Source of the DNA: a virus
Lineage: Duplodnaviria > Heunggongvirae > Uroviricota > Caudoviricetes
Virus record (IMG/VR): IMGVR_UViG_647533159_000006
Length of the DNA: 32,030 bases
Strand: one strand, 5' to 3'
Below the pieces are notes generated by a model. The model saw nothing but the letters and a program-made list of their open reading frames with translations. It did no database searches and was not told the DNA's origin. Positions within the stretch are counted from its first letter, which is position 1. Every line of letters begins with the position of its first letter. Below, in pieces: positions 1 to 31,127 of this stretch. The translations under genes and the position numbers were made by a program.

Positions 1-1011
1 TTATAACGTCACTCCGCCTTTTAGTGGATTCAGAGCGACGGCATTTTGCAGGTAGTCAGGCGCAAGGTGCGCATAGGCCATCGTCTGCTGAATGCTCGCA
101 TGTCCCAGAATCTGTTGCAGTGCGATTATATTGCCCCCGTTCATCATGAAATGGCTTGCGAATGTATGCCGCAGGATGTGGGTTGCCTGATTGGGTGGTA
201 TATCAGGTTTCACTCTGCGTAAAATCCCGCAAAATTTCTCATAATCAACTTTGAATAATTTGGCGCTTGCCTCCTCTTTAACTTTTTTCTCCAGTTCCTC
301 AGAAATCGGCACGGTTCGCTTTTTACCGTTTTTGGTTTTCAGGAAGGTAACCCTGCAATTTGTAATCTGTGCTGGTTTTAGCGTGGCAACTTCCGTCCAT
401 CTTCCTCCAGTGCTCAGACATAAAAGCGCGACAAGTAAGTCATCACCAGCCAAAACATTTAACAGTTTTTCGATTTCTGCTTTTTCCAGGAACGTCATTT
501 CAGGGTTGGCCTCCGCCAGTGGCGGCAGTCCGTGAATTGGGTGTTGCCCGGAAAATTCATCCAATTGAATTAATTTTGTGAACATGCCGGATAATCGGTA
601 CATGTCACGGTTTATCGTTGCGGCACTGATACCATCACGTAGTCGTATGGAACGATAATCCATCAAAGCCCTTTTGCTCATCCGGCTCACTGGTATATCA
701 CCTATGCCGCTGATGGTTTTGAGTAGATGATTAAACTCTTTTGTTCCATGCTCGTGGTTTTGCCCGTGATATTTCCACCAGATGTCCAGCAACTCACTCA
801 AAGTTCGGCGGTCTGCTCGCTGGCCTCCCCATTCTTTCTGACTGGCATTGGCGATTGTGTATCGCTCAAATGCTAGTGCTTCAGCTTTTCTTTCGAATTT
901 CCTGCGGATGCGTTTTCCGTCGCGACCGCGAGGTCTAATGTCCACTTCATAGCGACCATCATCGAGCTTCTTAATTGCCATAAGAAAGCCCTCCGGCGCT
1001 GTATTCACCAT
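1..1011 (-). CDS. int: Tyrosine integrase (P2 Int-like)
   Basis: 336-aa minus-strand ORF; C-terminal catalytic region with ...HILRHTFASHFMMNGGNIIALQQILGHASIQQTMAYAHLAP (R..HxxR..Y tyrosine recombinase signature); sits at the prophage end next to the repressor. Confidence 0.9.
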   Translation of the reverse strand: MVNTAPEGFLMAIKKLDDGRYEVDIRPRGRDGKRIRRKFERKAEALAFERYTIANASQKEWGGQRADRRTLSELLDIWWKYHGQNHEHGTKEFNHLLKTISGIGDIPVSRMSKRALMDYRSIRLRDGISAATINRDMYRLSGMFTKLIQLDEFSGQHPIHGLPPLAEANPEMTFLEKAEIEKLLNVLAGDDLLVALLCLSTGGRWTEVATLKPAQITNCRVTFLKTKNGKKRTVPISEELEKKVKEEASAKLFKVDYEKFCGILRRVKPDIPPNQATHILRHTFASHFMMNGGNIIALQQILGHASIQQTMAYAHLAPDYLQNAVALNPLKGGVTL

Positions 1012-3237: not shown

Positions 3238-3509
3238 GTATTCGTATTGAAATTGGCGAACGTTATGTCGTTACCAGTGACAGCTTTCAGTTTATTCTCC
3301 ACGAGAAAAAGAGAGCTGAAAGCGGTAAAAATGCCGGTCAGGAATGGCTGGCGGTAGTTGGTTATTACCCGAAATTAAGCCAGCTCGTTTCCGGCCTGAT
3401 GCATCACGATATTCTGACCGGAAGCGCAAAATCTTTTGCTGATTTAAACGCGCAGGTTGAGCAACTCAGCAAGCGTTGTTCAGAGGCTTTTGGCTCACAT
3501 GGCCGTTAA
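3234..3509 (+). CDS. Hypothetical early protein (P2 orf83 position)
   Basis: 91-aa ORF coupled to orf82 and overlapping the start of A. Confidence 0.5.
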   Translation: MSIRIEIGERYVVTSDSFQFILHEKKRAESGKNAGQEWLAVVGYYPKLSQLVSGLMHHDILTGSAKSFADLNAQVEQLSKRCSEAFGSHGR

Positions 3510-5784
3510 AGCCTCCGGGCATTTTGTCCCTCCGTCAGCATTTGCCGCAGGCACCGGTAAGACGTTTACCGGTGCTTATGCATGGAACGCGCCACGCGAG
3601 GCCGTCGGGCGCGAAAGACCTCTTACACGTGACGAGATGCGTCAGGTGCAAGGTGTTTTATCCACGATTAACCGCCTGCCTTACTTTTTGCGCTCGCTGT
3701 TTACTTCACGCTATGACTACATCCGGCGCAATAAAAGCCCGGTGCACGGGTTTTATTTCCTCACATCCACTTTTCAGCGTCGTTTATGGCCGCGCATTGA
3801 GCGTGTGAATCAGCGCCATGAAATGAACACCGACGCGTCGTTGCTGTTTCTGGCAGAGCGTGAGCACTATGCGCGCCTGCCGGGAATGAATGACAAGGAG
3901 CTGAAAAAGTTTGCCGCCCGTATCTCATCGCAGCTTTTCATAATGTATGAGGAACTCTGCGATGCCTGGGTGGATGCGCATGGCGAGAAAGAATCGCTGT
4001 TTACGGATGAGGCGCAGGCTCACCTGTATGGTCATGTTGCTGGCGCTGCACGTGCTTTCAATATTTCCCCGCTCTACTGGAAAAAATACCGTAAAGGGCA
4101 GATGACCACGAGGCAGGCATATTCTGCCATTGCCCGTCTGTTTAACGATGAGTGGTGGACTCATCAGCTTAAAGGCCAGCGTATGCGCTGGCATGAGGCG
4201 TTACTGATTGCTGTCGGGGAGGTCAATAAAGACCGTTCTCCTTATGCCAGTAAACATGCCATTCGTGATGTGCGTGCGCGCCGCCAGGCAAATCTGGAAT
4301 TTCTTAAATCGTGTGACCTTGAAAACAAGGAAACCGGCGAGCGCATCGACCTTATCAGTAAGGTGATGGGCAGTATTTCTAATCCAGAAATTCGCCGGAT
4401 GGAGCTGATGAACACCATCGCCGGTATTGAGCGTTACGCTGCCGCAGAGGGTGATGTGGGGATGTTTATCACGCTGACCGCGCCGTCAAAGTATCACCCG
4501 ACACGTCAGGTCAGAAAAGGCGAAAGTAAAACCGTCCAGCTAAATCACGGCTGGAATGATGAGGCATTTAATCCAAAGGATGCGCAGCGTTATCTCTGCC
4601 GTATCTGGAGCCTGATGCGCACGGCATTCAAGGATAATGATTTACAGGCCTACGGTTTGCGTGTTGTTGAACCACACCACGACGGAACGCCGCACTGGCA
4701 TATGATGCTTTTTTGTAATCCACGCCAGCGTAACCAGATTATTGAAATCATGCGTCGCTACGCGCTCAAAGAGGATGGAGACGAAAGAGGAGCCGCGCGA
4801 AACCGTTTTCAGGCAAAACATCTTAACCGGGGCGGTGCTGCGGGGTATATCGCGAAATACATCTCAAAAAATATCGACGGCTATGCACTGGATGGTCAGC
4901 TCGATAATGATACCGGCAGACCGCTGAAAGATACTGCCGCGGCTGTTACCGCATGGGCGTCAACGTGGCGCATCCCGCAATTTAAAACGGTTGGTCTGCC
5001 GACAATGGGGGCTTACCGTGAACTACGCAAATTGCCTCGCGGCGTCAGCATTGCTGATGAGTTTGACGAGCGCGTCGAGGCTGCACGCGCCGCTGCAGAC
5101 AGTGGTGATTTTGCGTTGTATATCAGCGCGCAGGGCGGGGCAAATGTCCCGCGCGATTGTCAGACTGTCAGGGTCGCCCGTAGCCCGTCGGATGAAGTTA
5201 ACGAGTACGAGGAAGAAGTCGAGAGAGTGGTCGGCATTTACGCGCCGCATCTCGGCGCGCGTCATATTCATATCACCAGAACCACGGACTGGCGCATTGT
5301 GCCGAAAGTGCCGGTCGTTGAGCCTTTGACTTTAAAAAGCGGCATCGCCGCGCCTCGGAGTCCTGTCAATAACTGTGGAAAGCTCACCGGTGGTGATACT
5401 TCGTTACCGGCTCCCACGCCTTCTGAGCACGCCGCAGCAGTGCTTAATCTGGTTGATGACGGTGTTATCGAATGGAATGACCCGGAGGTCGTGAGGGCGC
5501 TCAGGGGCGCATTAAAACACGGCCTGAGAAGACCAAATCGTCAGCAAAGAAACGGAAGCCCGTTAAAACCGCATGAAATTGCACCATCGGCCAGACTGAC
5601 CCGGTCTGAACGATTGCAAATCACCCGTATCCGCGTTGACCTTGCTCAGAACGGTATCAGGCCGCAGCGATGGGAGCTTGAGGCGCTGGCGCGTGGCGTG
5701 ACCGTAAATTATGACGGGAAAAAATTCACGTATCCGGTCGCTGATGAGTGGCCGGGGTTCTCAAAAGTAATGGAGTGGACATAA
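3499..5784 (+). CDS. A: Replication initiation protein A (rolling-circle HUH endonuclease)
   Basis: ATG at 3499 (MAVKASGHFVPP...) gives 761 aa; contains the HUH motif (PHWHMMLF) and a tyrosine pair (GYIAKYISK) typical of rolling-circle initiators; the track ORF starts upstream at 3457 in frame. Confidence 0.9.
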   Translation: MAVKASGHFVPPSAFAAGTGKTFTGAYAWNAPREAVGRERPLTRDEMRQVQGVLSTINRLPYFLRSLFTSRYDYIRRNKSPVHGFYFLTSTFQRRLWPRIERVNQRHEMNTDASLLFLAEREHYARLPGMNDKELKKFAARISSQLFIMYEELCDAWVDAHGEKESLFTDEAQAHLYGHVAGAARAFNISPLYWKKYRKGQMTTRQAYSAIARLFNDEWWTHQLKGQRMRWHEALLIAVGEVNKDRSPYASKHAIRDVRARRQANLEFLKSCDLENKETGERIDLISKVMGSISNPEIRRMELMNTIAGIERYAAAEGDVGMFITLTAPSKYHPTRQVRKGESKTVQLNHGWNDEAFNPKDAQRYLCRIWSLMRTAFKDNDLQAYGLRVVEPHHDGTPHWHMMLFCNPRQRNQIIEIMRRYALKEDGDERGAARNRFQAKHLNRGGAAGYIAKYISKNIDGYALDGQLDNDTGRPLKDTAAAVTAWASTWRIPQFKTVGLPTMGAYRELRKLPRGVSIADEFDERVEAARAAADSGDFALYISAQGGANVPRDCQTVRVARSPSDEVNEYEEEVERVVGIYAPHLGARHIHITRTTDWRIVPKVPVVEPLTLKSGIAAPRSPVNNCGKLTGGDTSLPAPTPSEHAAAVLNLVDDGVIEWNDPEVVRALRGALKHGLRRPNRQQRNGSPLKPHEIAPSARLTRSERLQITRIRVDLAQNGIRPQRWELEALARGVTVNYDGKKFTYPVADEWPGFSKVMEWT

Positions 5785-6793: not shown

Positions 6794-7831
6794 ATGGCGG
6801 TAAAAGTTGTTGATCTTTTTTGTGGTGCTGGCGGGCTTACTCATGGCTTAAAGCAAGCCGGATTAGATGTAGTCGCTGGTATTGATATAGAGAGTGCATG
6901 CCGGGTTGCTTATGAAAGTAATAACAGTGCGCTTTTTATTGAAAAAGATATTTCTCTGGTGACCAAAGACGAGCTTAACGATCTTTTTGAAGGTGCGCAG
7001 GTCAGGGTGTTGGCTGGTTGTGCGCCGTGCCAACCTTTTTCAAGGTATACGCAAGGGCGCGATAAGAAAAATGATAAAAAGTGGCCTCTTCTTTATGAAT
7101 TTGAACGTTTAATTCGAGGGGTTAATCCAGAGATCGTTACAATGGAAAATGTGCCTGATGTAACGAAGCATTCTGTTTATAGTGACTTCTATAATAGTTT
7201 AGAGGCATTGGGTTATCATGTCTGGGCCGGAAAGGTTGAATGTGTAGATTATGGTGTTCCGCAAAATAGAGTAAGGCATGTATTATTGGCATCTAAATTT
7301 GCGCCGCTTTCATTTGTAAAACCAAAAGTAGAAAAGGCGGTGACGGTAAAAGAATGCATTGGCGGACTTCCTCCATTAAAGGCAGGTCAAACGGATCCTG
7401 TTGATCCTTTACATAAAGCAAGTAAATTAAGTGATATAAATCTAAAACGTATTGCTTGCTCTAAACCAGGAGGGACATGGCGAGACTGGCCAGTAGAGTT
7501 GATTGCATCATGCCACATAAAGAAAAGTGGGCAAGGTTATGCTAGTGTATACGGACGTATGGATTGGGATAAACCAAGTCCTACAATTACTACGCTATGT
7601 TATGGTTTTGGAAATGGCAGATTTGGTCATCCAGAGCAAAATCGTGCAATTTCTCTGAGAGAGGCTGCATTGTTGCAAACGTTTCCAAAGGATTACGTTT
7701 TTACTGCACCCAATGAGAAAGTATCTATAAAGAATGTTGGTAGGATGATTGGTAATGCAGTACCGGTAAAACTAGGTGAGGTTATAGGTGAGTCAATTAT
7801 AACTCACCTAAAAGAGCACAATATAGTTTAA
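6794..7831 (+). CDS. DNA (cytosine-5)-methyltransferase
   Basis: 345 aa with canonical C5-MTase motifs: I DLFCGAGG, IV PCQPFS, VI ENV, VIII QNRVR, X GNAVP; GGAG Shine-Dalgarno 7 nt upstream of the ATG. Confidence 0.9.
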   Translation: MAVKVVDLFCGAGGLTHGLKQAGLDVVAGIDIESACRVAYESNNSALFIEKDISLVTKDELNDLFEGAQVRVLAGCAPCQPFSRYTQGRDKKNDKKWPLLYEFERLIRGVNPEIVTMENVPDVTKHSVYSDFYNSLEALGYHVWAGKVECVDYGVPQNRVRHVLLASKFAPLSFVKPKVEKAVTVKECIGGLPPLKAGQTDPVDPLHKASKLSDINLKRIACSKPGGTWRDWPVELIASCHIKKSGQGYASVYGRMDWDKPSPTITTLCYGFGNGRFGHPEQNRAISLREAALLQTFPKDYVFTAPNEKVSIKNVGRMIGNAVPVKLGEVIGESIITHLKEHNIV

Positions 7832-8559
7832 GCATGTAGTCTTGATGATCGTATGTATAAGCGATCATCAAGGTATTTTTGTATGTTTTCTAGTATTTCT
7901 TCTAGGTAATGGAAAACTTCATTTTTAAGAAGTTCAAGGTTGTCAATAGACGTTTCTTGACCCTTGTTTAAAAAGGATTCTGAACCATGTGCCAATGCAT
8001 TTCTTGCTTTTTTTATGTTTACTAAATTTCCACCATTATGAGTTTTTGAACGATCTGTTTGATAGGAAAAACCATAGATATTAGCAACATCCCTAATTTT
8101 CTGTGCGTCAACATTTCCCGAAAATAGGGGGTTTTTATCTGCTTGAACTTGTTTTTTGTGTTCCTCTAGCCATTTTTTTAGAACTAGTTTTGCTATATCA
8201 CCTTGTGAAAAATCCATGTCACTCACCATATGATGGTCTAATTTTTTTAAGGCAAGCTTTGTTAAACTTTCGCAAATCTTATCGACACAAAGATCATCGC
8301 ACGAATTAAGTTCATTATGTATGTCTTCAATAGCATTAGATATAGTGGCTTCAATTAAGTTATATAATATAATAAACGCATTGGCTTTAAGGATATGCGT
8401 CATTTCGATATCGATTTCGCGGTGTTTACATTCGCCTGCTGTGCGATCTTTGTACGAGAAAGTTGGTCTCTCATCAATAATGAATTTAACAAAATTAAAA
8501 TATTTTTCTATATCTTCTTTTCTTTCAGAAAATAAAATTTTGCTGTTCATAATGACCAC
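7828..8559 (-). CDS. HEPN-like protein with Rx4H motif (putative RNase/effector), second gene of the DUF262 operon
   Basis: 243-aa ORF (GTG start 8559 with GGAG upstream; alternative ATG at 8550); C-terminal KKARNALAHG matches the HEPN Rx4-6H signature; 6 bp downstream of the DUF262 gene on the same strand; 3' end overlaps the MTase 3' end by 4 bp. Confidence 0.55.
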   Translation of the reverse strand: MVIMNSKILFSERKEDIEKYFNFVKFIIDERPTFSYKDRTAGECKHREIDIEMTHILKANAFIILYNLIEATISNAIEDIHNELNSCDDLCVDKICESLTKLALKKLDHHMVSDMDFSQGDIAKLVLKKWLEEHKKQVQADKNPLFSGNVDAQKIRDVANIYGFSYQTDRSKTHNGGNLVNIKKARNALAHGSESFLNKGQETSIDNLELLKNEVFHYLEEILENIQKYLDDRLYIRSSRLHA

Positions 8560-8565
8560 GGATAG

Positions 8566-9690
8566 TTACTCCTCACTATCATCTAGAACAGTATCTTCGG
8601 TCTGCACACCTAAAAGTTTGTCTCTTACATATTCAATACGTGCTTTTACTTTAGGTTTTGAGTTTGACGCATCAGATCTTGTATGTTTAATAAACTCTTC
8701 TGAGTTTAACCATTCCTCTACCGGTGTTGGTATTATGTTAGAGTTAGTTTTTAAGGCTAAAGTGGAACCGACAGCTAACGCTTCAAAGCGAATTCTTGGT
8801 ACAGTGTTTGCTGTTGCATTCTTTCTGAAACCATAGGGGAAATGTGTTTTGACAAATTCACACATATCTTGAAATTGTGCAGTTAGTTTTTCTTCTTGCT
8901 CAGGACTAAATGACTCATTTCGTTGGTCAAGATATTGGGTTAAGAAAGTATCAACACTTTTTTCAAAGTTAAGATAGTTATCACAATAGGCAAAATATCT
9001 AAGAACCAATTCTGGATATTCTCCACGACTGATTCTGGCATCGTTTAGAGGGCATATTTCCCTAAACAATGGAAACTCTGATAGTCTATTAACAACATCA
9101 AGAAAAGGCCCATCATTACTGCCCTGTCGTTGCTCCATTGTCGTGAGTTTTATTCCACCTGTATTCAATCGATCGAAAATCTCCCTTCTTGCTTCTTCAT
9201 CACATAATTCAGTGAGTTCAATCATTCGAATAGTTTTTCTATCGAATCTAAGCTTACGTGCAGGTGTGAAGTCAGAGTATTTGAATCCGTTGGCTGAAGT
9301 TAACTTTTTTAATCCAGTAAGGGTAAATTTATCATTTAGAAAATGATAAAGTGTTCTAATCCTCTGGCTACCATCAACGATTTCCAATCGCCCATCGTCA
9401 TTTCCGATATCGGCAACAAATACATATGGGATAGGAATATTTAGCAAAAGCGATTCAATGAATCTTGATTTTTGAACATTGCTCCAAACAAATTCCCTTT
9501 GATAATCAGGTATGTATAGTTCTGCTTGGTCGGTTTCTAATCCTTTCTGAAATTTGTCAACAATGACACTTACAGGAAACTCTCTAATTTGGTGATCCGT
9601 TATTTTTTGCATGGATTTGATCTGGTTATCCAGGTCAACTTTATCTTCTTCTGTGATCACTTGTTCAGGTTGTCTTGGGACTCTTGCCAT
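8566..9690 (-). CDS. DUF262 (ParB/Srx-like NTPase-fold) domain protein
   Basis: ATG at 9690 preceded by AAGGAG (track ORF extends to a GTG at 9765); DUF262 motifs IPDYQREFVW, IVDGSQRIRTL and FDRLNTGGIKLT; about 170 C-terminal residues without a recognisable HNH/DUF1524 motif. Confidence 0.75.
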   Translation of the reverse strand: MARVPRQPEQVITEEDKVDLDNQIKSMQKITDHQIREFPVSVIVDKFQKGLETDQAELYIPDYQREFVWSNVQKSRFIESLLLNIPIPYVFVADIGNDDGRLEIVDGSQRIRTLYHFLNDKFTLTGLKKLTSANGFKYSDFTPARKLRFDRKTIRMIELTELCDEEARREIFDRLNTGGIKLTTMEQRQGSNDGPFLDVVNRLSEFPLFREICPLNDARISRGEYPELVLRYFAYCDNYLNFEKSVDTFLTQYLDQRNESFSPEQEEKLTAQFQDMCEFVKTHFPYGFRKNATANTVPRIRFEALAVGSTLALKTNSNIIPTPVEEWLNSEEFIKHTRSDASNSKPKVKARIEYVRDKLLGVQTEDTVLDDSEE

Positions 9691-9833
9691 TTGTTTTCTC
9701 CTTATGCTTATTTGCAATAAGTTGCATTTGTTTGCATGCGTAGTTTTATACTGATTTAATCCCACAAGTCCTTTACATGCAAGGGTTAGAGGCTTAAATG
9801 CACCTGCATTAAAACCGCCTTATGAAGCGGGCA

Positions 9834-21155: not shown

Positions 21156-21759
21156 TTCGCGACTGCTGCCGACCGGCTCATCACCGCTTGAAGTCGCCGC
21201 CGCAAAAGCCTGTGCGGAAATTGAAAAAACGCCGGTCAGTATTCGTGAGCTGTGGAACCCGGACACCTGCCCGGCAAATCTGCTGCCGTGGCTGGCGTGG
21301 TCATTTTCGGTTGACCGCTGGGATGATAAGTGGCCGGAAGCGACAAAACGCGCTGTTATCCGCGATGCGTATTTCATTCACTGCCATAAGGGCACTATAG
21401 GCGCAATCCGGCGTGTGGTGGAGCCGCTCGGCTATCTGATTGAGGTGAGGGAGTGGTGGCAACTCAATGAGGAGCCGGGGACGTTCCGTATCGTTGTTGG
21501 CGTGCTTGAGCAGGGTATTACCGAGGAAATGTATCAGGAGCTGGAGCGCCTCGTTGCTGATGCAAAACCGGCAAGCCGCCATCTGACGGGACTGGCTATC
21601 AGTTTAAGTACAACCGGCAACATTTTTGCCGGTGCGGGATGCTATCACGGCGACGCCCTGACAGTTTATCCCTACACCCCGGAGGCCATTATTGTCGGAG
21701 GGGATTATTTCCCGGCCTCGGCCATTCATTTAATTGATAACCTGAGAGTAAACGCATGA
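21148..21759 (+). CDS. I: Baseplate protein I
   Basis: 203-aa track ORF, overlapping the J stop and the H start. Confidence 0.7.
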   Translation: MSDSRLLPTGSSPLEVAAAKACAEIEKTPVSIRELWNPDTCPANLLPWLAWSFSVDRWDDKWPEATKRAVIRDAYFIHCHKGTIGAIRRVVEPLGYLIEVREWWQLNEEPGTFRIVVGVLEQGITEEMYQELERLVADAKPASRHLTGLAISLSTTGNIFAGAGCYHGDALTVYPYTPEAIIVGGDYFPASAIHLIDNLRVNA

Positions 21760-22854
21760 CAGTGAAATACTACGCCATTCTGACTAATCAGGGCGCAGCA
21801 CGGCTGGCTAACGCGACGATGCTTGGCAGTAAGCTGAATCTGACGCAAATGGCCGTTGGTGATGCGAATGGTGTCTTGCCGACACCAGACCCGGCACAGA
21901 CAAAACTGATTAACCAGAAACGCATCGCGCCGCTGAATCTTCTGAGTGTTGACCCGAACAACCAGAGCCAGATTATTGCGGAGCAAATTATCCCTGAGAA
22001 CGAGGGTGGATTCTGGATCCGTGAGATTGGGCTTTATGATGATGAAGGCGTACTCATTGCGGTGGCGAACTGCCCGGAAACGTACAAACCGCAGTTACAG
22101 GAAGGCAGCGGTCGTACCCAGACTATCCGCATGATTCTGGTTGTCACGAATACCGAAGCTATTACGCTGAAAATCGACCCGTCGGTGGTACTGGCGACCC
22201 GTAAATACGTGGATGATGAAGTCCTGGAATTAAGGCTGTATGTGGATGACCAGATGAGAAACCACATTGCCGCACAGGATCCTCATACCCAGTATGCACA
22301 GAAACATAATCCGACATTTACCGGAGAACCAAAAGCGCCGACTCCTGATGCAGGAAATAACACCACGCGGATTGCGACCACTGCGTTTGTACAGGCTGCT
22401 ATTACCGCTCTGATTAATGGTGCGCCTGCCACGCTGGACACACTGAAAGAAATTGCCGCAGCCATTAACAATGACCCGAAATTCAGCACCACCATTAACA
22501 ATGCGCTGGCAGGTAAACAACCGCTGGACAATACGCTGACTCATTTGAGTGGAAAGGATGTTGCCGGTCTTCTCGCATACCTTGGTTTGGGAGAAGGTTC
22601 TCCAGCTATTGGCGTTCCGTTCTTCTGGCCGTCCGCTGCAATGCCAAATACTGTAATCGACAGCTGGTCCAGTATGGTGTTTTTGAAGTTCAACGGCGCG
22701 AAATTCTCTGCCACTGATTACCCTGTGCTGGCGAAAGTGTTTCCTTCGCTGGTATTACCTGAAGCCCGCGGTGATTTCATTCGTATCTGGGATGACGGGC
22801 GAGGTGCAGACGGTGGTCGCGAATTATTAAGCTGGCAGGCAGCTACAAACTTTT
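21756..22854 (+). CDS. H: Tail fibre protein H (3' end truncated by the N-run; C-terminal part lies in an invertible segment)
   Basis: Long ORF after I that runs into the N-run with no stop; C-terminal visible part (...GDFIRIWDDGRGADGGR...) resembles Mu/P1 S-type variable tail-fibre regions. Confidence 0.8.
22570..22595. promoter_or_regulatory. Hin/Gin-family recombination site (hix-like), left copy inside H
   Basis: ttctcgcatacc-tt-ggtttgggagaa; its reverse complement matches the right copy at 19 of 26 positions including TTCTCC and AAACCAA; counted by hand. Confidence 0.6.
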
Positions 22855-23407
22855 NNNNNNNNNNNNNNNNNNNNNNNNNNNNNNNNNNNNNNNNNNNNNN
22901 NNNNNNNNNNNNNNNNNNNNNNNNNNNNNNNNNNNNNNNNNNNNNNNNNNNNNNNNNNNNNNNNNNNNNNNNNNNNNNNNNNNNNNNNNNNNNNNNNNNN
23001 NNNNNNNNNNNNNNNNNNNNNNNNNNNNNNNNNNNNNNNNNNNNNNNNNNNNNNNNNNNNNNNNNNNNNNNNNNNNNNNNNNNNNNNNNNNNNNNNNNNN
23101 NNNNNNNNNNNNNNNNNNNNNNNNNNNNNNNNNNNNNNNNNNNNNNNNNNNNNNNNNNNNNNNNNNNNNNNNNNNNNNNNNNNNNNNNNNNNNNNNNNNN
23201 NNNNNNNNNNNNNNNNNNNNNNNNNNNNNNNNNNNNNNNNNNNNNNNNNNNNNNNNNNNNNNNNNNNNNNNNNNNNNNNNNNNNNNNNNNNNNNNNNNNN
23301 NNNNNNNNNNNNNNNNNNNNNNNNNNNNNNNNNNNNNNNNNNNNNNNNNNNNNNNNNNNNNNNNNNNNNNNNNNNNNNNNNNNNNNNNNNNNNNNNNNNN
23401 NNNNNNN
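22855..23407. other. Assembly gap (553 N)
   Basis: Contiguous n characters; lies between the two hix-like sites. Confidence 1.
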
Positions 23408-23567
23408 GATATCATTCCAGTTAATTGAGATGGAATAGTTCGTTGTTGTAAACGATCGGGGGAAAGTTATGTGTCTTACATTGGTGCCGACAGGAAATCC
23501 AAGATAAACACGCTGAATTATCATTCCTCCAGGTAACATAACCCAGTTAGCACCTTCTCCAAAACCA
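23408..23567 (-). CDS. Alternative tail-fibre C-terminal segment (partial, reads from the right hix-like site into the gap)
   Basis: The minus-strand frame ...GFGEGANWVMLPGGMIIQRVYLGFPVGTNVRHITFPRSF... is in the same codon phase relative to the crossover dinucleotide as H (LGLGEGSPAIG...), so inversion would fuse it in frame to the constant part of H. Confidence 0.5.
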
Positions 23568-23579
23568 ACGTTTAAGAAA
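23554..23579. promoter_or_regulatory. Hin/Gin-family recombination site (hix/gix/cix-like), right copy
   Basis: ttctccaaaacc-aa-cgtttaagaaaa closely resembles hixL/gix/cix 26-bp sites (12-2-12 imperfect palindrome); located about 57 bp upstream of the invertase start. Confidence 0.7.
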
Positions 23580-23635
23580 ATGCAGAGATTATGGCTAACT
23601 GGCATCATCTCCGGTTTTTATTCAGGGGGATGCTC

Positions 23636-24229
23636 ATGCTTATTGGCTATGTACGCGTGTCAACAAATGACCAGAACACGGAATTGCAGCGTAACGCGCT
23701 GGAGTGCGCGGGATGTGAGCGGATTTTTGAGGACAAAATCAGCGGCACGAAGTCCGACAGGCCGGGACTGAAAAAACTGCTCAGAACATTATCAGCAGGT
23801 GACACTCTGGTAGTCTGGAAGCTGGACCGGCTGGGGCGTAGTATGCGGCATCTGGTCATTCTGGTTGAGGAGCTGCGCGAACGCGGCGTTAATTTTCGCA
23901 GCCTGACAGATGCTATTGATACCAGCACGCCGATGGGGCGTTTTTTCTTTCATGTGATGGGTGCCCTGGCTGAAATGGAGCGAGAACTCATTGTCGAGCG
24001 GACACGCGCCGGACTGGAAGCGGCCAGAGCCAAAGGGCGTATTGGTGGCAGACGTCCGAAGCTCACCGCGAGTGAGTGGGAACAGGCAGGACGGTTGCTG
24101 GCTGCGGGTGAATCACGTCAACGCGTGGCGCTGATTTTTGATATTGGCCTGTCCACGCTCTATAAAAAATTCCCCTCATCAGCGGCAAAGAATAAATTGT
24201 GTCATCCCTTAGCCAACCGGGACAAATAG
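23636..24229 (+). CDS. Serine DNA invertase (Hin/Gin/Cin/Pin family)
   Basis: ATG at 23636 (MLIGYVRVSTNDQNTELQRNAL...): resolvase/invertase N-terminal catalytic serine motif plus a C-terminal HTH; track ORF starts at 23591. Confidence 0.9.
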   Translation: MLIGYVRVSTNDQNTELQRNALECAGCERIFEDKISGTKSDRPGLKKLLRTLSAGDTLVVWKLDRLGRSMRHLVILVEELRERGVNFRSLTDAIDTSTPMGRFFFHVMGALAEMERELIVERTRAGLEAARAKGRIGGRRPKLTASEWEQAGRLLAAGESRQRVALIFDIGLSTLYKKFPSSAAKNKLCHPLANRDK

Positions 24230-24288
24230 CCTGACATCTCCGGCACAACTGAAAATAACACTCACCCATTAACCACGGAGTTAAACGG

Positions 24289-25479
24289 ATGAGTGACTAT
24301 CATCACGGCGTGCAGGTGCTGGAGATTAACGACGGCACCCGCGTCATTTCCACCGTATCCACCGCCATTGTTGGCATGGTCTGCACGGCCAGCGATGCGG
24401 ATGCGGAAACCTTCCCCGTCAATAAACCGGTGCTGATCACCAATGTGCAGAGCGCGATTGCAAAGGCCGGTAAAAAAGGCACGCTGGCGGCATCGTTGCA
24501 GGCCATCGCTGACCAGTCAAAACCGGTCACCGTTGTCGTGCGCGTGGAAGACGGAACCGGCGACGACGAAGAAACGAAACTCGCGCAGACCGTTTCCAAT
24601 ATCATCGGCACCACTGACGAAAACGGTCAGTACACCGGACTGAAAGCCCTGCTGGCGGCGGAGTCGGTAACCGGTGTTAAACCGCGTATTCTCGGTGTGC
24701 CGGGACTGGATACCAAAGAGGTGGCTGTTGCACTGGCATCCGTCTGTCAGAAGCTGCGCGCTTTCGGGTATATCAGCGCATGGGGCTGTAAAACCATTTC
24801 CGAGGTGAAAGCCTACCGCCAGAATTTCAGCCAGCGTGAGCTGATGGTCATCTGGCCGGATTTCCTCGCATGGGATACGGTCACCAGTACCACCGCCACC
24901 GCGTATGCCACCGCCCGTGCGCTGGGTCTGCGCGCTAAAATCGACCAGGAGCAGGGCTGGCATAAAACGCTGTCCAACGTCGGGGTAAACGGTGTTACCG
25001 GCATCAGCGCCTCTGTATTCTGGGATTTGCAGGAGTCCGGCACCGATGCTGACCTGCTTAACGAGTCAGGCGTCACTACGCTGATTCGCCGCGACGGTTT
25101 CCGATTCTGGGGTAACCGTACCTGCTCTGATGACCCGCTGTTCCTCTTTGAAAACTACACCCGCACCGCGCAGGTGCTGGCCGACACGATGGCTGAGGCG
25201 CACATGTGGGCGGTGGACAAGCCCATCACCGCAACGCTGATTCGCGACATCGTTGACGGCATCAATGCCAAATTCCGTGAGCTGAAAACAAACGGCTATA
25301 TCGTGGATGCGACCTGCTGGTTCAGCGAAGAATCCAACGATGCGGAAACCCTCAAGGCCGGAAAACTGTATATCGACTACGACTATACCCCGGTGCCTCC
25401 TCTTGAAAACCTGACCCTGCGCCAGCGTATTACCGATAAATACCTGGCAAATCTGGTCACCTCGGTTAACAGCAATTAA
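24289..25479 (+). CDS. FI: Tail sheath protein
   Basis: 396 aa (P2 FI length), followed by the tube gene. Confidence 0.85.
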   Translation: MSDYHHGVQVLEINDGTRVISTVSTAIVGMVCTASDADAETFPVNKPVLITNVQSAIAKAGKKGTLAASLQAIADQSKPVTVVVRVEDGTGDDEETKLAQTVSNIIGTTDENGQYTGLKALLAAESVTGVKPRILGVPGLDTKEVAVALASVCQKLRAFGYISAWGCKTISEVKAYRQNFSQRELMVIWPDFLAWDTVTSTTATAYATARALGLRAKIDQEQGWHKTLSNVGVNGVTGISASVFWDLQESGTDADLLNESGVTTLIRRDGFRFWGNRTCSDDPLFLFENYTRTAQVLADTMAEAHMWAVDKPITATLIRDIVDGINAKFRELKTNGYIVDATCWFSEESNDAETLKAGKLYIDYDYTPVPPLENLTLRQRITDKYLANLVTSVNSN

Positions 25480-28948: not shown

Positions 28949-29428
28949 ATGATGCTCGCGTTAGGTATGTTTGTTTTTATGCGCCAGACGCTGCCACACC
29001 AGACCATGCAGCGTGAATCAGATTATCGCTGGCCGTCAAATTCCCGTATCGGTAAACGGGATGCCTACCAGTTTCTCGGCGTTGGTGAGGAAAACATGAC
29101 GCTTGCCGGTGTGCTTTATCCCGAACTGACCGGCGGCAAGCTGACGATGACCACGCTCAGACTGATGGCAGAGGAAGGCCGGGCGTGGCCGTTGCTGGAT
29201 GGCACAGGCATGATTTACGGCATGTATGTCATCAGCAGGGTGAGTGAAACAGGGAGTATTTTCTTTGCAGACGGCACACCCCGGAAAATTGATTTTACGC
29301 TGTCACTCACCCGCGTGGATGAATCACTGGCCGCGCTTTATGGCGATATCGGTAAACAGGCAGAATCGCTCATCGGTAAGGATGGCAGTATGGCGACTAA
29401 ATTCACGGGGATGACGGGGGCGGAATAA
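28949..29428 (+). CDS. U: Tail protein U
   Basis: 159 aa, P2 U position. Confidence 0.75.
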   Translation: MMLALGMFVFMRQTLPHQTMQRESDYRWPSNSRIGKRDAYQFLGVGEENMTLAGVLYPELTGGKLTMTTLRLMAEEGRAWPLLDGTGMIYGMYVISRVSETGSIFFADGTPRKIDFTLSLTRVDESLAALYGDIGKQAESLIGKDGSMATKFTGMTGAE

Positions 29429-30591
29429 TGCTGGATGCGCTGACATTTGATGCAGGCAGTACGCTGACGCCGGATTACATGCTGATGCTCGACAGCAGGG
29501 ATATTACCGGCAATATCAGCGACCGTCTGATGAGCATGACCCTGACGGATAACCGGGGCTTTGAGGCTGACCAGCTTGATATTGAACTGAACGATGCCGA
29601 CGGGCAGGTCGGGCTGCCGGTTCGTGGCGCTGTCCTGACGGTGTATATCGGCTGGAAAGGTTTTGCCCTGGTATGCAAAGGGAAATTTACCGTTGATGAG
29701 GTTGAACACCGGGGCGCGCCGGATGTGGTTACCATCCGCGCCCGGAGTGCAGATTTTCGCGGGACGCTCAATTCCCGCCGGGAAGGCTCCTGGCATGACA
29801 CCACACTCGGTGCGATTGTTGAGGCGATAGCCTCCCGTAACAGGCTGGAAGCCAGTGTCGCTCCGTCACTGGCCGGAATTAAAATTCCGCACATCGACCA
29901 GTCGCAGGAGTCTGATGCGAAATTCCTGACCCGCCTTGCTGAACGCAACGGCGGTGAGGTGTCGGTAAAAATGGGAAAACTGCTGTTTCTCAAAGTGGGG
30001 CAGGGGGTGACGGCCAGCGGTAAAAAAATCCCGCAGATTACCATCACCCGCAGCGACGGCGACCGTCATCATTTTGCGATTGCTGACCGTGGAGCTTACA
30101 CCGGCGTAACGGCAAAGTGGTTACACACCAAAGACCCGAAGCCGCAAAAGCAGAAGGTAAAACTGAAACGCAAAAAGAAAGAGAAACACCTGCGCGCACT
30201 GGAGCACCCGAAAGCGAAACCGGTCACGCAGAAGAAAGCGCCAAAAGCACCGGAAGCGCGCGAAGGTGAATACATGGCAGGTGAAGCTGACAACGTTTTT
30301 GCCCTGACCACGGTATATGCCACAAAAGCGCAGGCCATGCGTGCCGCTCAGGCGAAGTGGGATAAACTGCAACGGGGCGTTGCGGAGTTCTCCATCATCC
30401 TGGCTACCGGTCGTGCAGATATTTACACGGAAACGCCGGTCAAAGTGTCAGGTTTTAAGCGCGTCATAGACGAGCAGGACTGGACAATCACTAAGGTGAC
30501 ACACTTTCTGAATAATTCCGGCTTCACGACGTCCTTAGAGCTTGAGGTCAGGCTTTCTGATGTGGAGTATGAAACAGAAGATGATGAGTGA
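29428..30591 (+). CDS. D: Tail protein D (late control gene D)
   Basis: 387 aa, P2 D position, precedes ogr. Confidence 0.8.
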   Translation: MLDALTFDAGSTLTPDYMLMLDSRDITGNISDRLMSMTLTDNRGFEADQLDIELNDADGQVGLPVRGAVLTVYIGWKGFALVCKGKFTVDEVEHRGAPDVVTIRARSADFRGTLNSRREGSWHDTTLGAIVEAIASRNRLEASVAPSLAGIKIPHIDQSQESDAKFLTRLAERNGGEVSVKMGKLLFLKVGQGVTASGKKIPQITITRSDGDRHHFAIADRGAYTGVTAKWLHTKDPKPQKQKVKLKRKKKEKHLRALEHPKAKPVTQKKAPKAPEAREGEYMAGEADNVFALTTVYATKAQAMRAAQAKWDKLQRGVAEFSIILATGRADIYTETPVKVSGFKRVIDEQDWTITKVTHFLNNSGFTTSLELEVRLSDVEYETEDDE

Positions 30592-31046: not shown

Positions 31047-31127
31047 ATCCTCAATTTGCCTGCTGCTTAATGCATTGCAGATGATTTGCTTCCGTTATAC
31101 TAGCGTCAGTTGATAGCGGGAGTATTT

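Follow-up and report, generated by a model that had tools for sequence, protein, structure and literature searches.

A probable tail-fibre inversion switch of the Gin/Pin type in a P2-like Escherichia coli prophage

Part-way along the tail-fibre gene H of a P2-like prophage lies a short site that recurs, in inverted orientation, just before a gene for a DNA invertase. Does this arrangement amount to a switch that exchanges the C-terminus of the fibre, and, if it does, is the switch of a kind already known? The locus was analysed within the window, by which is meant the whole stretch of 32,030 nucleotides held as IMG/VR virus record IMGVR_UViG_647533159_000006. The evidence set out below gives us high confidence that it is an inversion switch of the Gin/Pin family, probably Fis/enhancer-dependent, which acts on the tail fibre of a P2-like E. 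coli prophage (Peduoviridae). The features discussed are collected in Table 1.

Table 1. Features of the switch and of its surroundings, with positions in the window, and the reference crossover sites used for comparison
Feature	Position	Strand	Sequence or basis
Left crossover site, 26 bp, inside H	22570-22595		TTCTCGCATACC-TT-GGTTTGGGAGAA; whole site TTCTCGCATACCTTGGTTTGGGAGAA
Right crossover site, 26 bp	23555-23580		TTCTCCAAAACC-AA-CGTTTAAGAAAA; whole site TTCTCCAAAACCAACGTTTAAGAAAA
e14 left crossover site, reference record			CTCTCGAAAACCTTGGTTTGGGAGAA
e14 right crossover site, reference record			TTCTCCCAAACCAACGTTTATGAAAA
Mu left crossover site, reference record			TTATCCAAAACCTCGGTTTACAGGAA
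Mu right crossover site, reference record			TTCCTGTAAACCGAGGTTTTGGATAA
Constant N-terminal part of H, 276 codons, to the central dinucleotide of the left site	21756-22583	+	PF12571 and continuous ORF
Variable C-terminus expressed at present (Collar type), visible part	22584-22854	+	homology to E308
553 consecutive N within the invertible segment (gap or mask)	22855-23407		letters
Visible part of the silent alternative C-terminus, gp53-like	23408-23566	-	PF21882 and homologues
DNA invertase gene, 197 aa, small serine recombinase of the Gin/Pin group	23636-24229	+	PF00239 and PF02796
Pair of Fis-like 15-mers, a candidate recombinational enhancer, within the 5' part of the invertase gene	23657-23720		predicted
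C-5 cytosine methylase	6794-7831	+
HEPN-domain protein	7828-8559	-
GmrSD_N/DUF262 protein	8566-9765	-

The window holds what looks like a complete P2-like prophage, with an integrase gene at 1-1011 (minus strand), gpA at 3457-5784 and gpD at 29428-30591; a host cation-efflux gene starts at 31110, past gpD. The tail genes stand in the order V, W, J, I, H, followed by FI (sheath), FII (tube), E and T (tape-measure), and the backbone of canonical P2, V W J I H ... FI FII E T U D plus int and gpA, is thereby recognisable. The difference lies after H, where in canonical P2 G, a terminator, fun(Z) and the PF promoter precede FI; that phage has no invertase between H and FI, in agreement with the sequence-only reading, which had held that canonical P2 lacks such a switch. 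P2 does carry a lone relic of a crossover site inside H, TTATCGAATATCTCGGTTTACAGGAA (NC_001895, L037:1158-1183), which matches Mu gixL at 23 of 26 positions and has neither a partner site nor an invertase; it looks like a fossil left by cassette exchange or by the loss of a switch. Elsewhere in the window the portal gene is separated from the replication gene A by a block of cargo genes (6794-9765), which occupies the place of old and tin in canonical P2 and may be a defence island.

The two crossover sites were compared with each other and with known sites. Inverted similarity between them had been put at 19 of 26 positions; the similarity holds, and the count is in fact 20 of 26. The left site has the sequence and lies at the coordinates previously given for it, while the right site is present but begins one base later than the interval 23554-23579 that had been assigned to it. 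With arms lengthened to 32 nt, which are then 78% complementary, no inverted repeat in the region 21700-24300 is longer than this one (I1). A degenerate hix/gix-like pattern, with at most 3 mismatches allowed, matched these two places alone in the 32-kb window, and the same pattern gave 0 matches in 100 dinucleotide-preserving shuffles, so that the similarity stands well clear of chance level. On the top strand the cores read TT and AA and the 12-bp half-sites fit TTCTCNNAAACC; the two inverted 26-bp sites that characterise the class are thus both there. Of the reference sites, that on the left in e14 matches the left site of the window at 23 of 26 positions and that on the right matches its counterpart at 24 of 26. 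From the comparison with e14 and Mu, the sites of the window are almost e14 sites, of gix architecture. A pattern scan of the visible window revealed no third crossover site, and exactly two were found in each of 14 relatives; a third could conceivably sit under the run of N in the window.

The placing of the sites relative to the reading frame is also as the sequence-only reading had it. Both H, on the plus strand, and the minus-strand ORF that enters at the right site have the central TT at codon positions 2-3. Given this shared codon phase at both cores, exchange would join ...LLAYL to GFGEGANWVMLPGG... in frame.

The left site falls at the boundary between the constant and the variable part of H. 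Residues 1-150 match the Phage_tail_fib family (PF12571, E=1.8e-62), residues 26-259 are 42% identical to P2 gpH, and the ORF is open from an ATG at 21756 for the 366 codons that can be seen. The visible part of the tip at present fused to H is 99.3% identical to that of E. coli E308 (L001), in which H is an intact ORF of 427 aa, and the Collar domain (PF07484) is present in full-length homologues of this tip. The opposed tip is in frame with H once the segment is inverted. Its visible fragment matches Gp53-like_C (PF21882) with E=0.002, below the curated cut-off of Pfam, and its full-length homologues match the family. The Collar and gp53-like domains, together with the precedent of Mu, P1 and e14, suggest that these would be two alternative receptor-binding tips, each with a chaperone of its own. 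In RefSeq relatives (L001:2457-3740 and L036:1088-2371) the intact 427-aa H ORF has been broken into two 'pseudogene' pieces, and the silent tip is annotated as a stand-alone 'gp53-like domain-containing protein' whose ATG is on the far side of the crossover site (at 23608 in the window; 23408-23608, minus strand).

The extent of the invertible segment has to be revised. A length of about 1.0 kb had been implied, with no mention of the run of N inside it. Because the segment contains this run, its apparent length of 1,011 bp is not reliable; runs of N in assemblies are frequently not length-true. The closest complete relatives, E308 (L001) and CP098975 (L016), share 98.7-99.4% identity with the window on the inner flank at either side of the run, and where the window shows 553 N they have 1,313 bp. 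This stretch comprises, in order, the end of the Collar tip, a 197-aa Caudo_TAP chaperone (plus strand), a 142-aa Caudo_TAP chaperone (minus strand) and the end of the gp53-like tip, and it points to a true segment of about 1.77 kb rather than 1.0 kb. The segment is 1,771 bp long in the closest relative of the window, and the distance from site to site ranges from 1,618 to 1,951 bp in 14 relatives. Opposed chaperone genes are present in all informative relatives, and in the window they would fall under the N run. The apparent 1,011-bp segment is therefore probably an artefact of the gap, and the true segment would be about 1.77 kb long with two opposed chaperone genes. As to the origin of the gap, a mixture of orientations in the sequenced material was considered and is unlikely, since the sequence crosses both sites and the gap falls midway between them. 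A likelier cause is the repetition of chaperone genes from other prophages.

The gene beyond the right site, whose ORF starts 55 nt past it, had been assigned to the Hin/Gin family. It does encode a serine invertase, of the Gin/Pin group, but its closest counterpart is e14 Pin rather than Hin. The Resolvase domain (PF00239, E=8e-53) and the HTH_7 domain (PF02796, E=1e-12) are both found, the Mu Gin crystal structure (3uj3) is matched with E=6e-95, and the protein is 86% identical to e14 PinE and 77% identical to Mu Gin. It aligns residue for residue with Gin and PinE, the catalytic serine being Ser9 in MLIGYVRVS. In Hin, K47, K/R48, K/R51, Q151, R154 and L155 are Fis/enhancer-contacting residues that are uniquely conserved in the Fis/enhancer-dependent invertases (McLean et al., PMC3798978). 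Here K46, K47 and R50, and Q150, R153 and L154, correspond to Hin 47/48/51 and 151/154/155 (the numbering being one less than in Hin), and the invertase is probably Fis/enhancer-dependent. A simple scan for a sigma-70-like promoter of the invertase found none.

The native enhancer of the Hin/Gin/Cin/Pin class consists of two Fis sites, about 100 bp from one of the crossover sites and within the invertase gene. In the corresponding part of the gene studied here, two Fis-like 15-mers can be made out. The first, GTGTCAACAAATGAC (23657-23671), is centred at 23664, a distance of 96.5 bp from the right site, centre to centre; the second, GCGCGGGATGTGAGC (23706-23720, G-N13-C), is centred at 23713, 49 bp beyond the first. 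Among 16 distinct invertase genes, which extend down to 70% nucleotide identity with gin, no invariant nucleotide run is longer than the 17-mer TCAACAAATGACCAGAA (23660-23676), situated at the first 15-mer. Five consecutive synonymous positions are unchanged in this 17-mer, although coding constraint may contribute. The second 15-mer has a G+C-rich centre and its conservation is not striking. These features are suggestive of a Fis-bound enhancer at 23657-23720.

Evidence for inversion itself comes from natural relatives. The predicted flipped junction, consisting of the constant part of H through the core followed by the reverse complement of 23408-23566, was used as a query, and 17 of 5,426 complete E. 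coli genomes gave a single full-length match, the best with 99.8% identity. In complete E. coli genomes from two studies, the pairs GF8/GF75 and 613/571 each share one prophage, located at identical chromosomal coordinates, with the two members in opposite states. Inversion in silico of positions 3785-5618 in one member of a pair reproduced the other over 7,298 nt with 0 mismatches; when the inversion was omitted, approximately 1,330 mismatches were counted. The breakpoints of the natural inversions are the central dinucleotides. Furthermore, the inner half-sites are swapped in the flipped relatives, GGTTTGGGAGAA and TTCTCCAAAACC becoming GGTTTTGGAGAA and TTCTCCCAAACC, as is predicted by exchange at the central dinucleotide. 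The site variants of the window itself, including the rarer outer half-site CGTTTAAGAAAA, are found as exact recombinant versions in a second prophage of E308 (L039), which when flipped in silico is collinear with the window at 97.5-98.0% identity. A fused 373-aa form of H, ending in the gp53-like tip, is annotated in GF8, strain 613 and E308, and among eight contigs with an identical invertase the tip fused to H is gp53-like in four and Collar in three, H not being called in the other. It is clear that the segment inverts in near-identical natural relatives and that both orientations exist in nature. The proposal that inversion fuses an alternative C-terminus to the constant part of H is borne out by these exact inversions and by the genomes with the flipped junction, and by extension the copy in the window would be expected to be active as well.

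Some of these relatives show further peculiarities. E308 contains a pair of related P2-like prophages whose invertase proteins are the same and whose segments are oppositely oriented, and inversion acting in trans between them is plausible. The second of the two (L039) has frameshifts in V, in one chaperone and in the silent tip. In L036 (E. coli Z1322HEC0009, 3648-4316) an insertion of about 590 bp, with a hypothetical ORF of 105 aa, separates the right site from the invertase, and the outer half-site is altered to CGTTTTATGGAA; with this half-site changed, the switch may be disabled in L036. The same insertion explains the split matches in relatives (H41, H42) for which a third cassette or site had been considered, and the number of sites there is still two.

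By the mechanism of the family, dimers of the invertase would bind both sites, and the bound sites would synapse on the Fis-bound enhancer at the 5' end of the invertase gene. Ser9 would then make 2-bp staggered cuts at the central TT/AA, half of the tetramer would rotate through 180 degrees, and religation would leave the segment flipped; as the core is non-palindromic, inversion is enforced. In the present orientation H would be made with the Collar-type tip and be followed by a chaperone of about 197 aa, as judged by homology, and in the flipped orientation it would be made with the gp53-like tip and be followed by a chaperone of about 142 aa. The pair of cassettes facing away would have neither an upstream promoter nor a start of its own and is taken as silent. 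Since inversion would provide two alternative tips, a population of lysogens would release phage with two receptor specificities, with a predicted consequence for host range.

Other readings of the locus have to be weighed against this. The copy in the window could be a decayed, locked switch that has kept its sites and invertase and lost internal sequence, for example the chaperones, such that only one fibre form is functional or inversion has no consequence. This would fit the presence of 553 N in place of the 1,313 bp found in relatives whose identity to the window is at least 98.7% on either side: if the run were length-true, about 760 bp would be missing with respect to the nearest relatives and there would be no room for both chaperones. 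There are precedents for such decay in the frameshifts of the second E308 prophage and in L012, where the segment is shortened to 1,618 bp. However, the length of an assembly gap is often not a true one, and the visible parts of the switch are intact, with an H open for 366 codons, a full-length and widespread invertase and canonical sites; the remaining structural genes in the window likewise all appear as full-length ORFs. We regard a decayed switch as unlikely. Next to no weight can be given to the idea that the inverted repeat is due to chance, or merely to homology, through the G(L/F)GEG codons shared by related C-terminal modules. A peptide motif is indeed common to both sites (LGLGEG and VGFGEG), but the right outer half-site fits the site pattern while lying outside the tail-fibre coding sequence that is used, and a coding-driven repeat is refuted by the exact natural inversions at the central dinucleotide with exchange of half-sites; chance is countered by the match of the sites to the crossover sites of e14 and Mu and by the shuffles, in which the pattern did not occur.

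A further possibility is that the switch serves the host. The e14 P segment, inverted by PinQ, is reported to give a chimeric StfE2 with a phage-blocking role at the surface (PMC12529663). A chimeric fibre made by the lysogen could in the same way alter the cell surface and block adsorption of other phages, and this idea draws on the role reported for the homologous e14 module and on the high similarity of sites and invertase to those of e14. Its probability is nevertheless very slight: the window contains a complete-looking P2-like prophage, from integrase to gpD, and the cassettes are remote from those of e14 (78% over 51 nt, with 91% in part of a chaperone only). In P2-like phages, moreover, H belongs to the late operon and is not expected to be expressed in lysogens, which is established knowledge for P2 and counts against a role in the lysogen. 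There is also a small chance that the locus is either a chaperone-poor minimal inverton of about 1 kb, the 553 N then being length-true, or a phage-blocking chimeric fibre serving the lysogen in the manner of e14 StfE2/PinQ. A phage tail-fibre switch of the Gin/Pin family is thus the reading that we retain.

Judged on sequence, the closest relative of this switch is the e14 Pin system, not Hin. The e14 P segment with PinE has the arrangement predicted for the window, of fibre gene, chaperone, opposed chaperone and opposed tip followed by the invertase, the same TT/AA core, and a length of 1,797 bp to set beside the 1,771 bp of the closest relative of the window. The surroundings differ, since e14 is a defective remnant of lambdoid type whereas the window holds an apparently complete P2-like prophage in which the constant part of the fibre is a homologue of P2 gpH. 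Identity of the cassettes with those of the e14 P segment was also considered and was rejected, as similarity was confined to part of one chaperone (91% over 316 nt). The G segment of Mu with Gin resembles the window in having its left site within the fibre gene S and the invertase just outside the right site, has two opposed sets of tip and chaperone as predicted for the window, and gin shares the invariant 17-nt block in its 5' coding region. It differs in the length of the segment (approximately 3 kb), in its TC/GA core and in the phage backbone, and blastn gave no match between the cassettes of the window and those of Mu G.

Closer parallels in context are found among P2-like phages. Peduovirus pro483 has the order I-H-tfa-tfa'-tip'-'DNA invertase'-FI (sheath), the order predicted for the window; its deposited sequence shows the segment the other way round, so that the Collar tip faces away, and has other tip alleles. 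The invertase region of the window is 94-98% identical to those of pro483, the 'P2' prophage of O157:H43 T22, phage S164 and Salmonella phage MET_P1_103_31. Goldberg et al. (2014, PMC4272514) demonstrated by sequencing and PCR that, for invertible loci in two P2-like prophages of EPEC E2348/69, both orientations coexist in clonal cultures. The invertible tail-fibre segments in that strain are about 1.8-2.2 kb long, one locus having two variants and the other three sites and four variants (PMC4272514); the likeness to the window is taken from that published description, and the three-site locus is unlike the window and its relatives, in which two sites are seen, for the window in its visible part.

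The switch is therefore genuine but of an ordinary Gin/Pin type, and both the kind of element and its context are already known. The novelty implied in the sequence-only reading does not survive, because such switches are common in P2-like prophages and have been documented, with the same layout in pro483 and with inversion in P2-like prophages of EPEC shown in 2014 (PMC4272514). It raises no new biological question, and its value lies in annotation and in practical work. Automatic annotation names the invertase a 'recombinase family protein', presents the silent tip as a stand-alone gene and sometimes splits H, all of which is corrected once the switch is recognised. The switch also explains inversion differences between assemblies of one prophage, and the two predicted receptor specificities bear on the prediction of host range and on the engineering of P2-like phages or tailocins.

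The module is widespread. With the right flank as query, 2,567 of 5,426 complete E. coli genomes matched at some level, 454 of them over at least 80% of its length, and an identical invertase protein was found in 1,542 blocks of the assembly collection. An exact 64-nt stretch of the Collar-type tip occurs in 18 IMG/VR contigs (L018-L035), none of which has the N run; the same stretch had no match in the genome contig collection. Throughout L018-L035 one Collar-type cassette is joined to different outer half-sites, the e14-like CTCTCGAAAACC, CTCTTCAAAACC and TCCTCAATTACC, and the occurrence of the same cassette with varied outer half-sites indicates that it is shared among phage backbones by way of the common crossover site.
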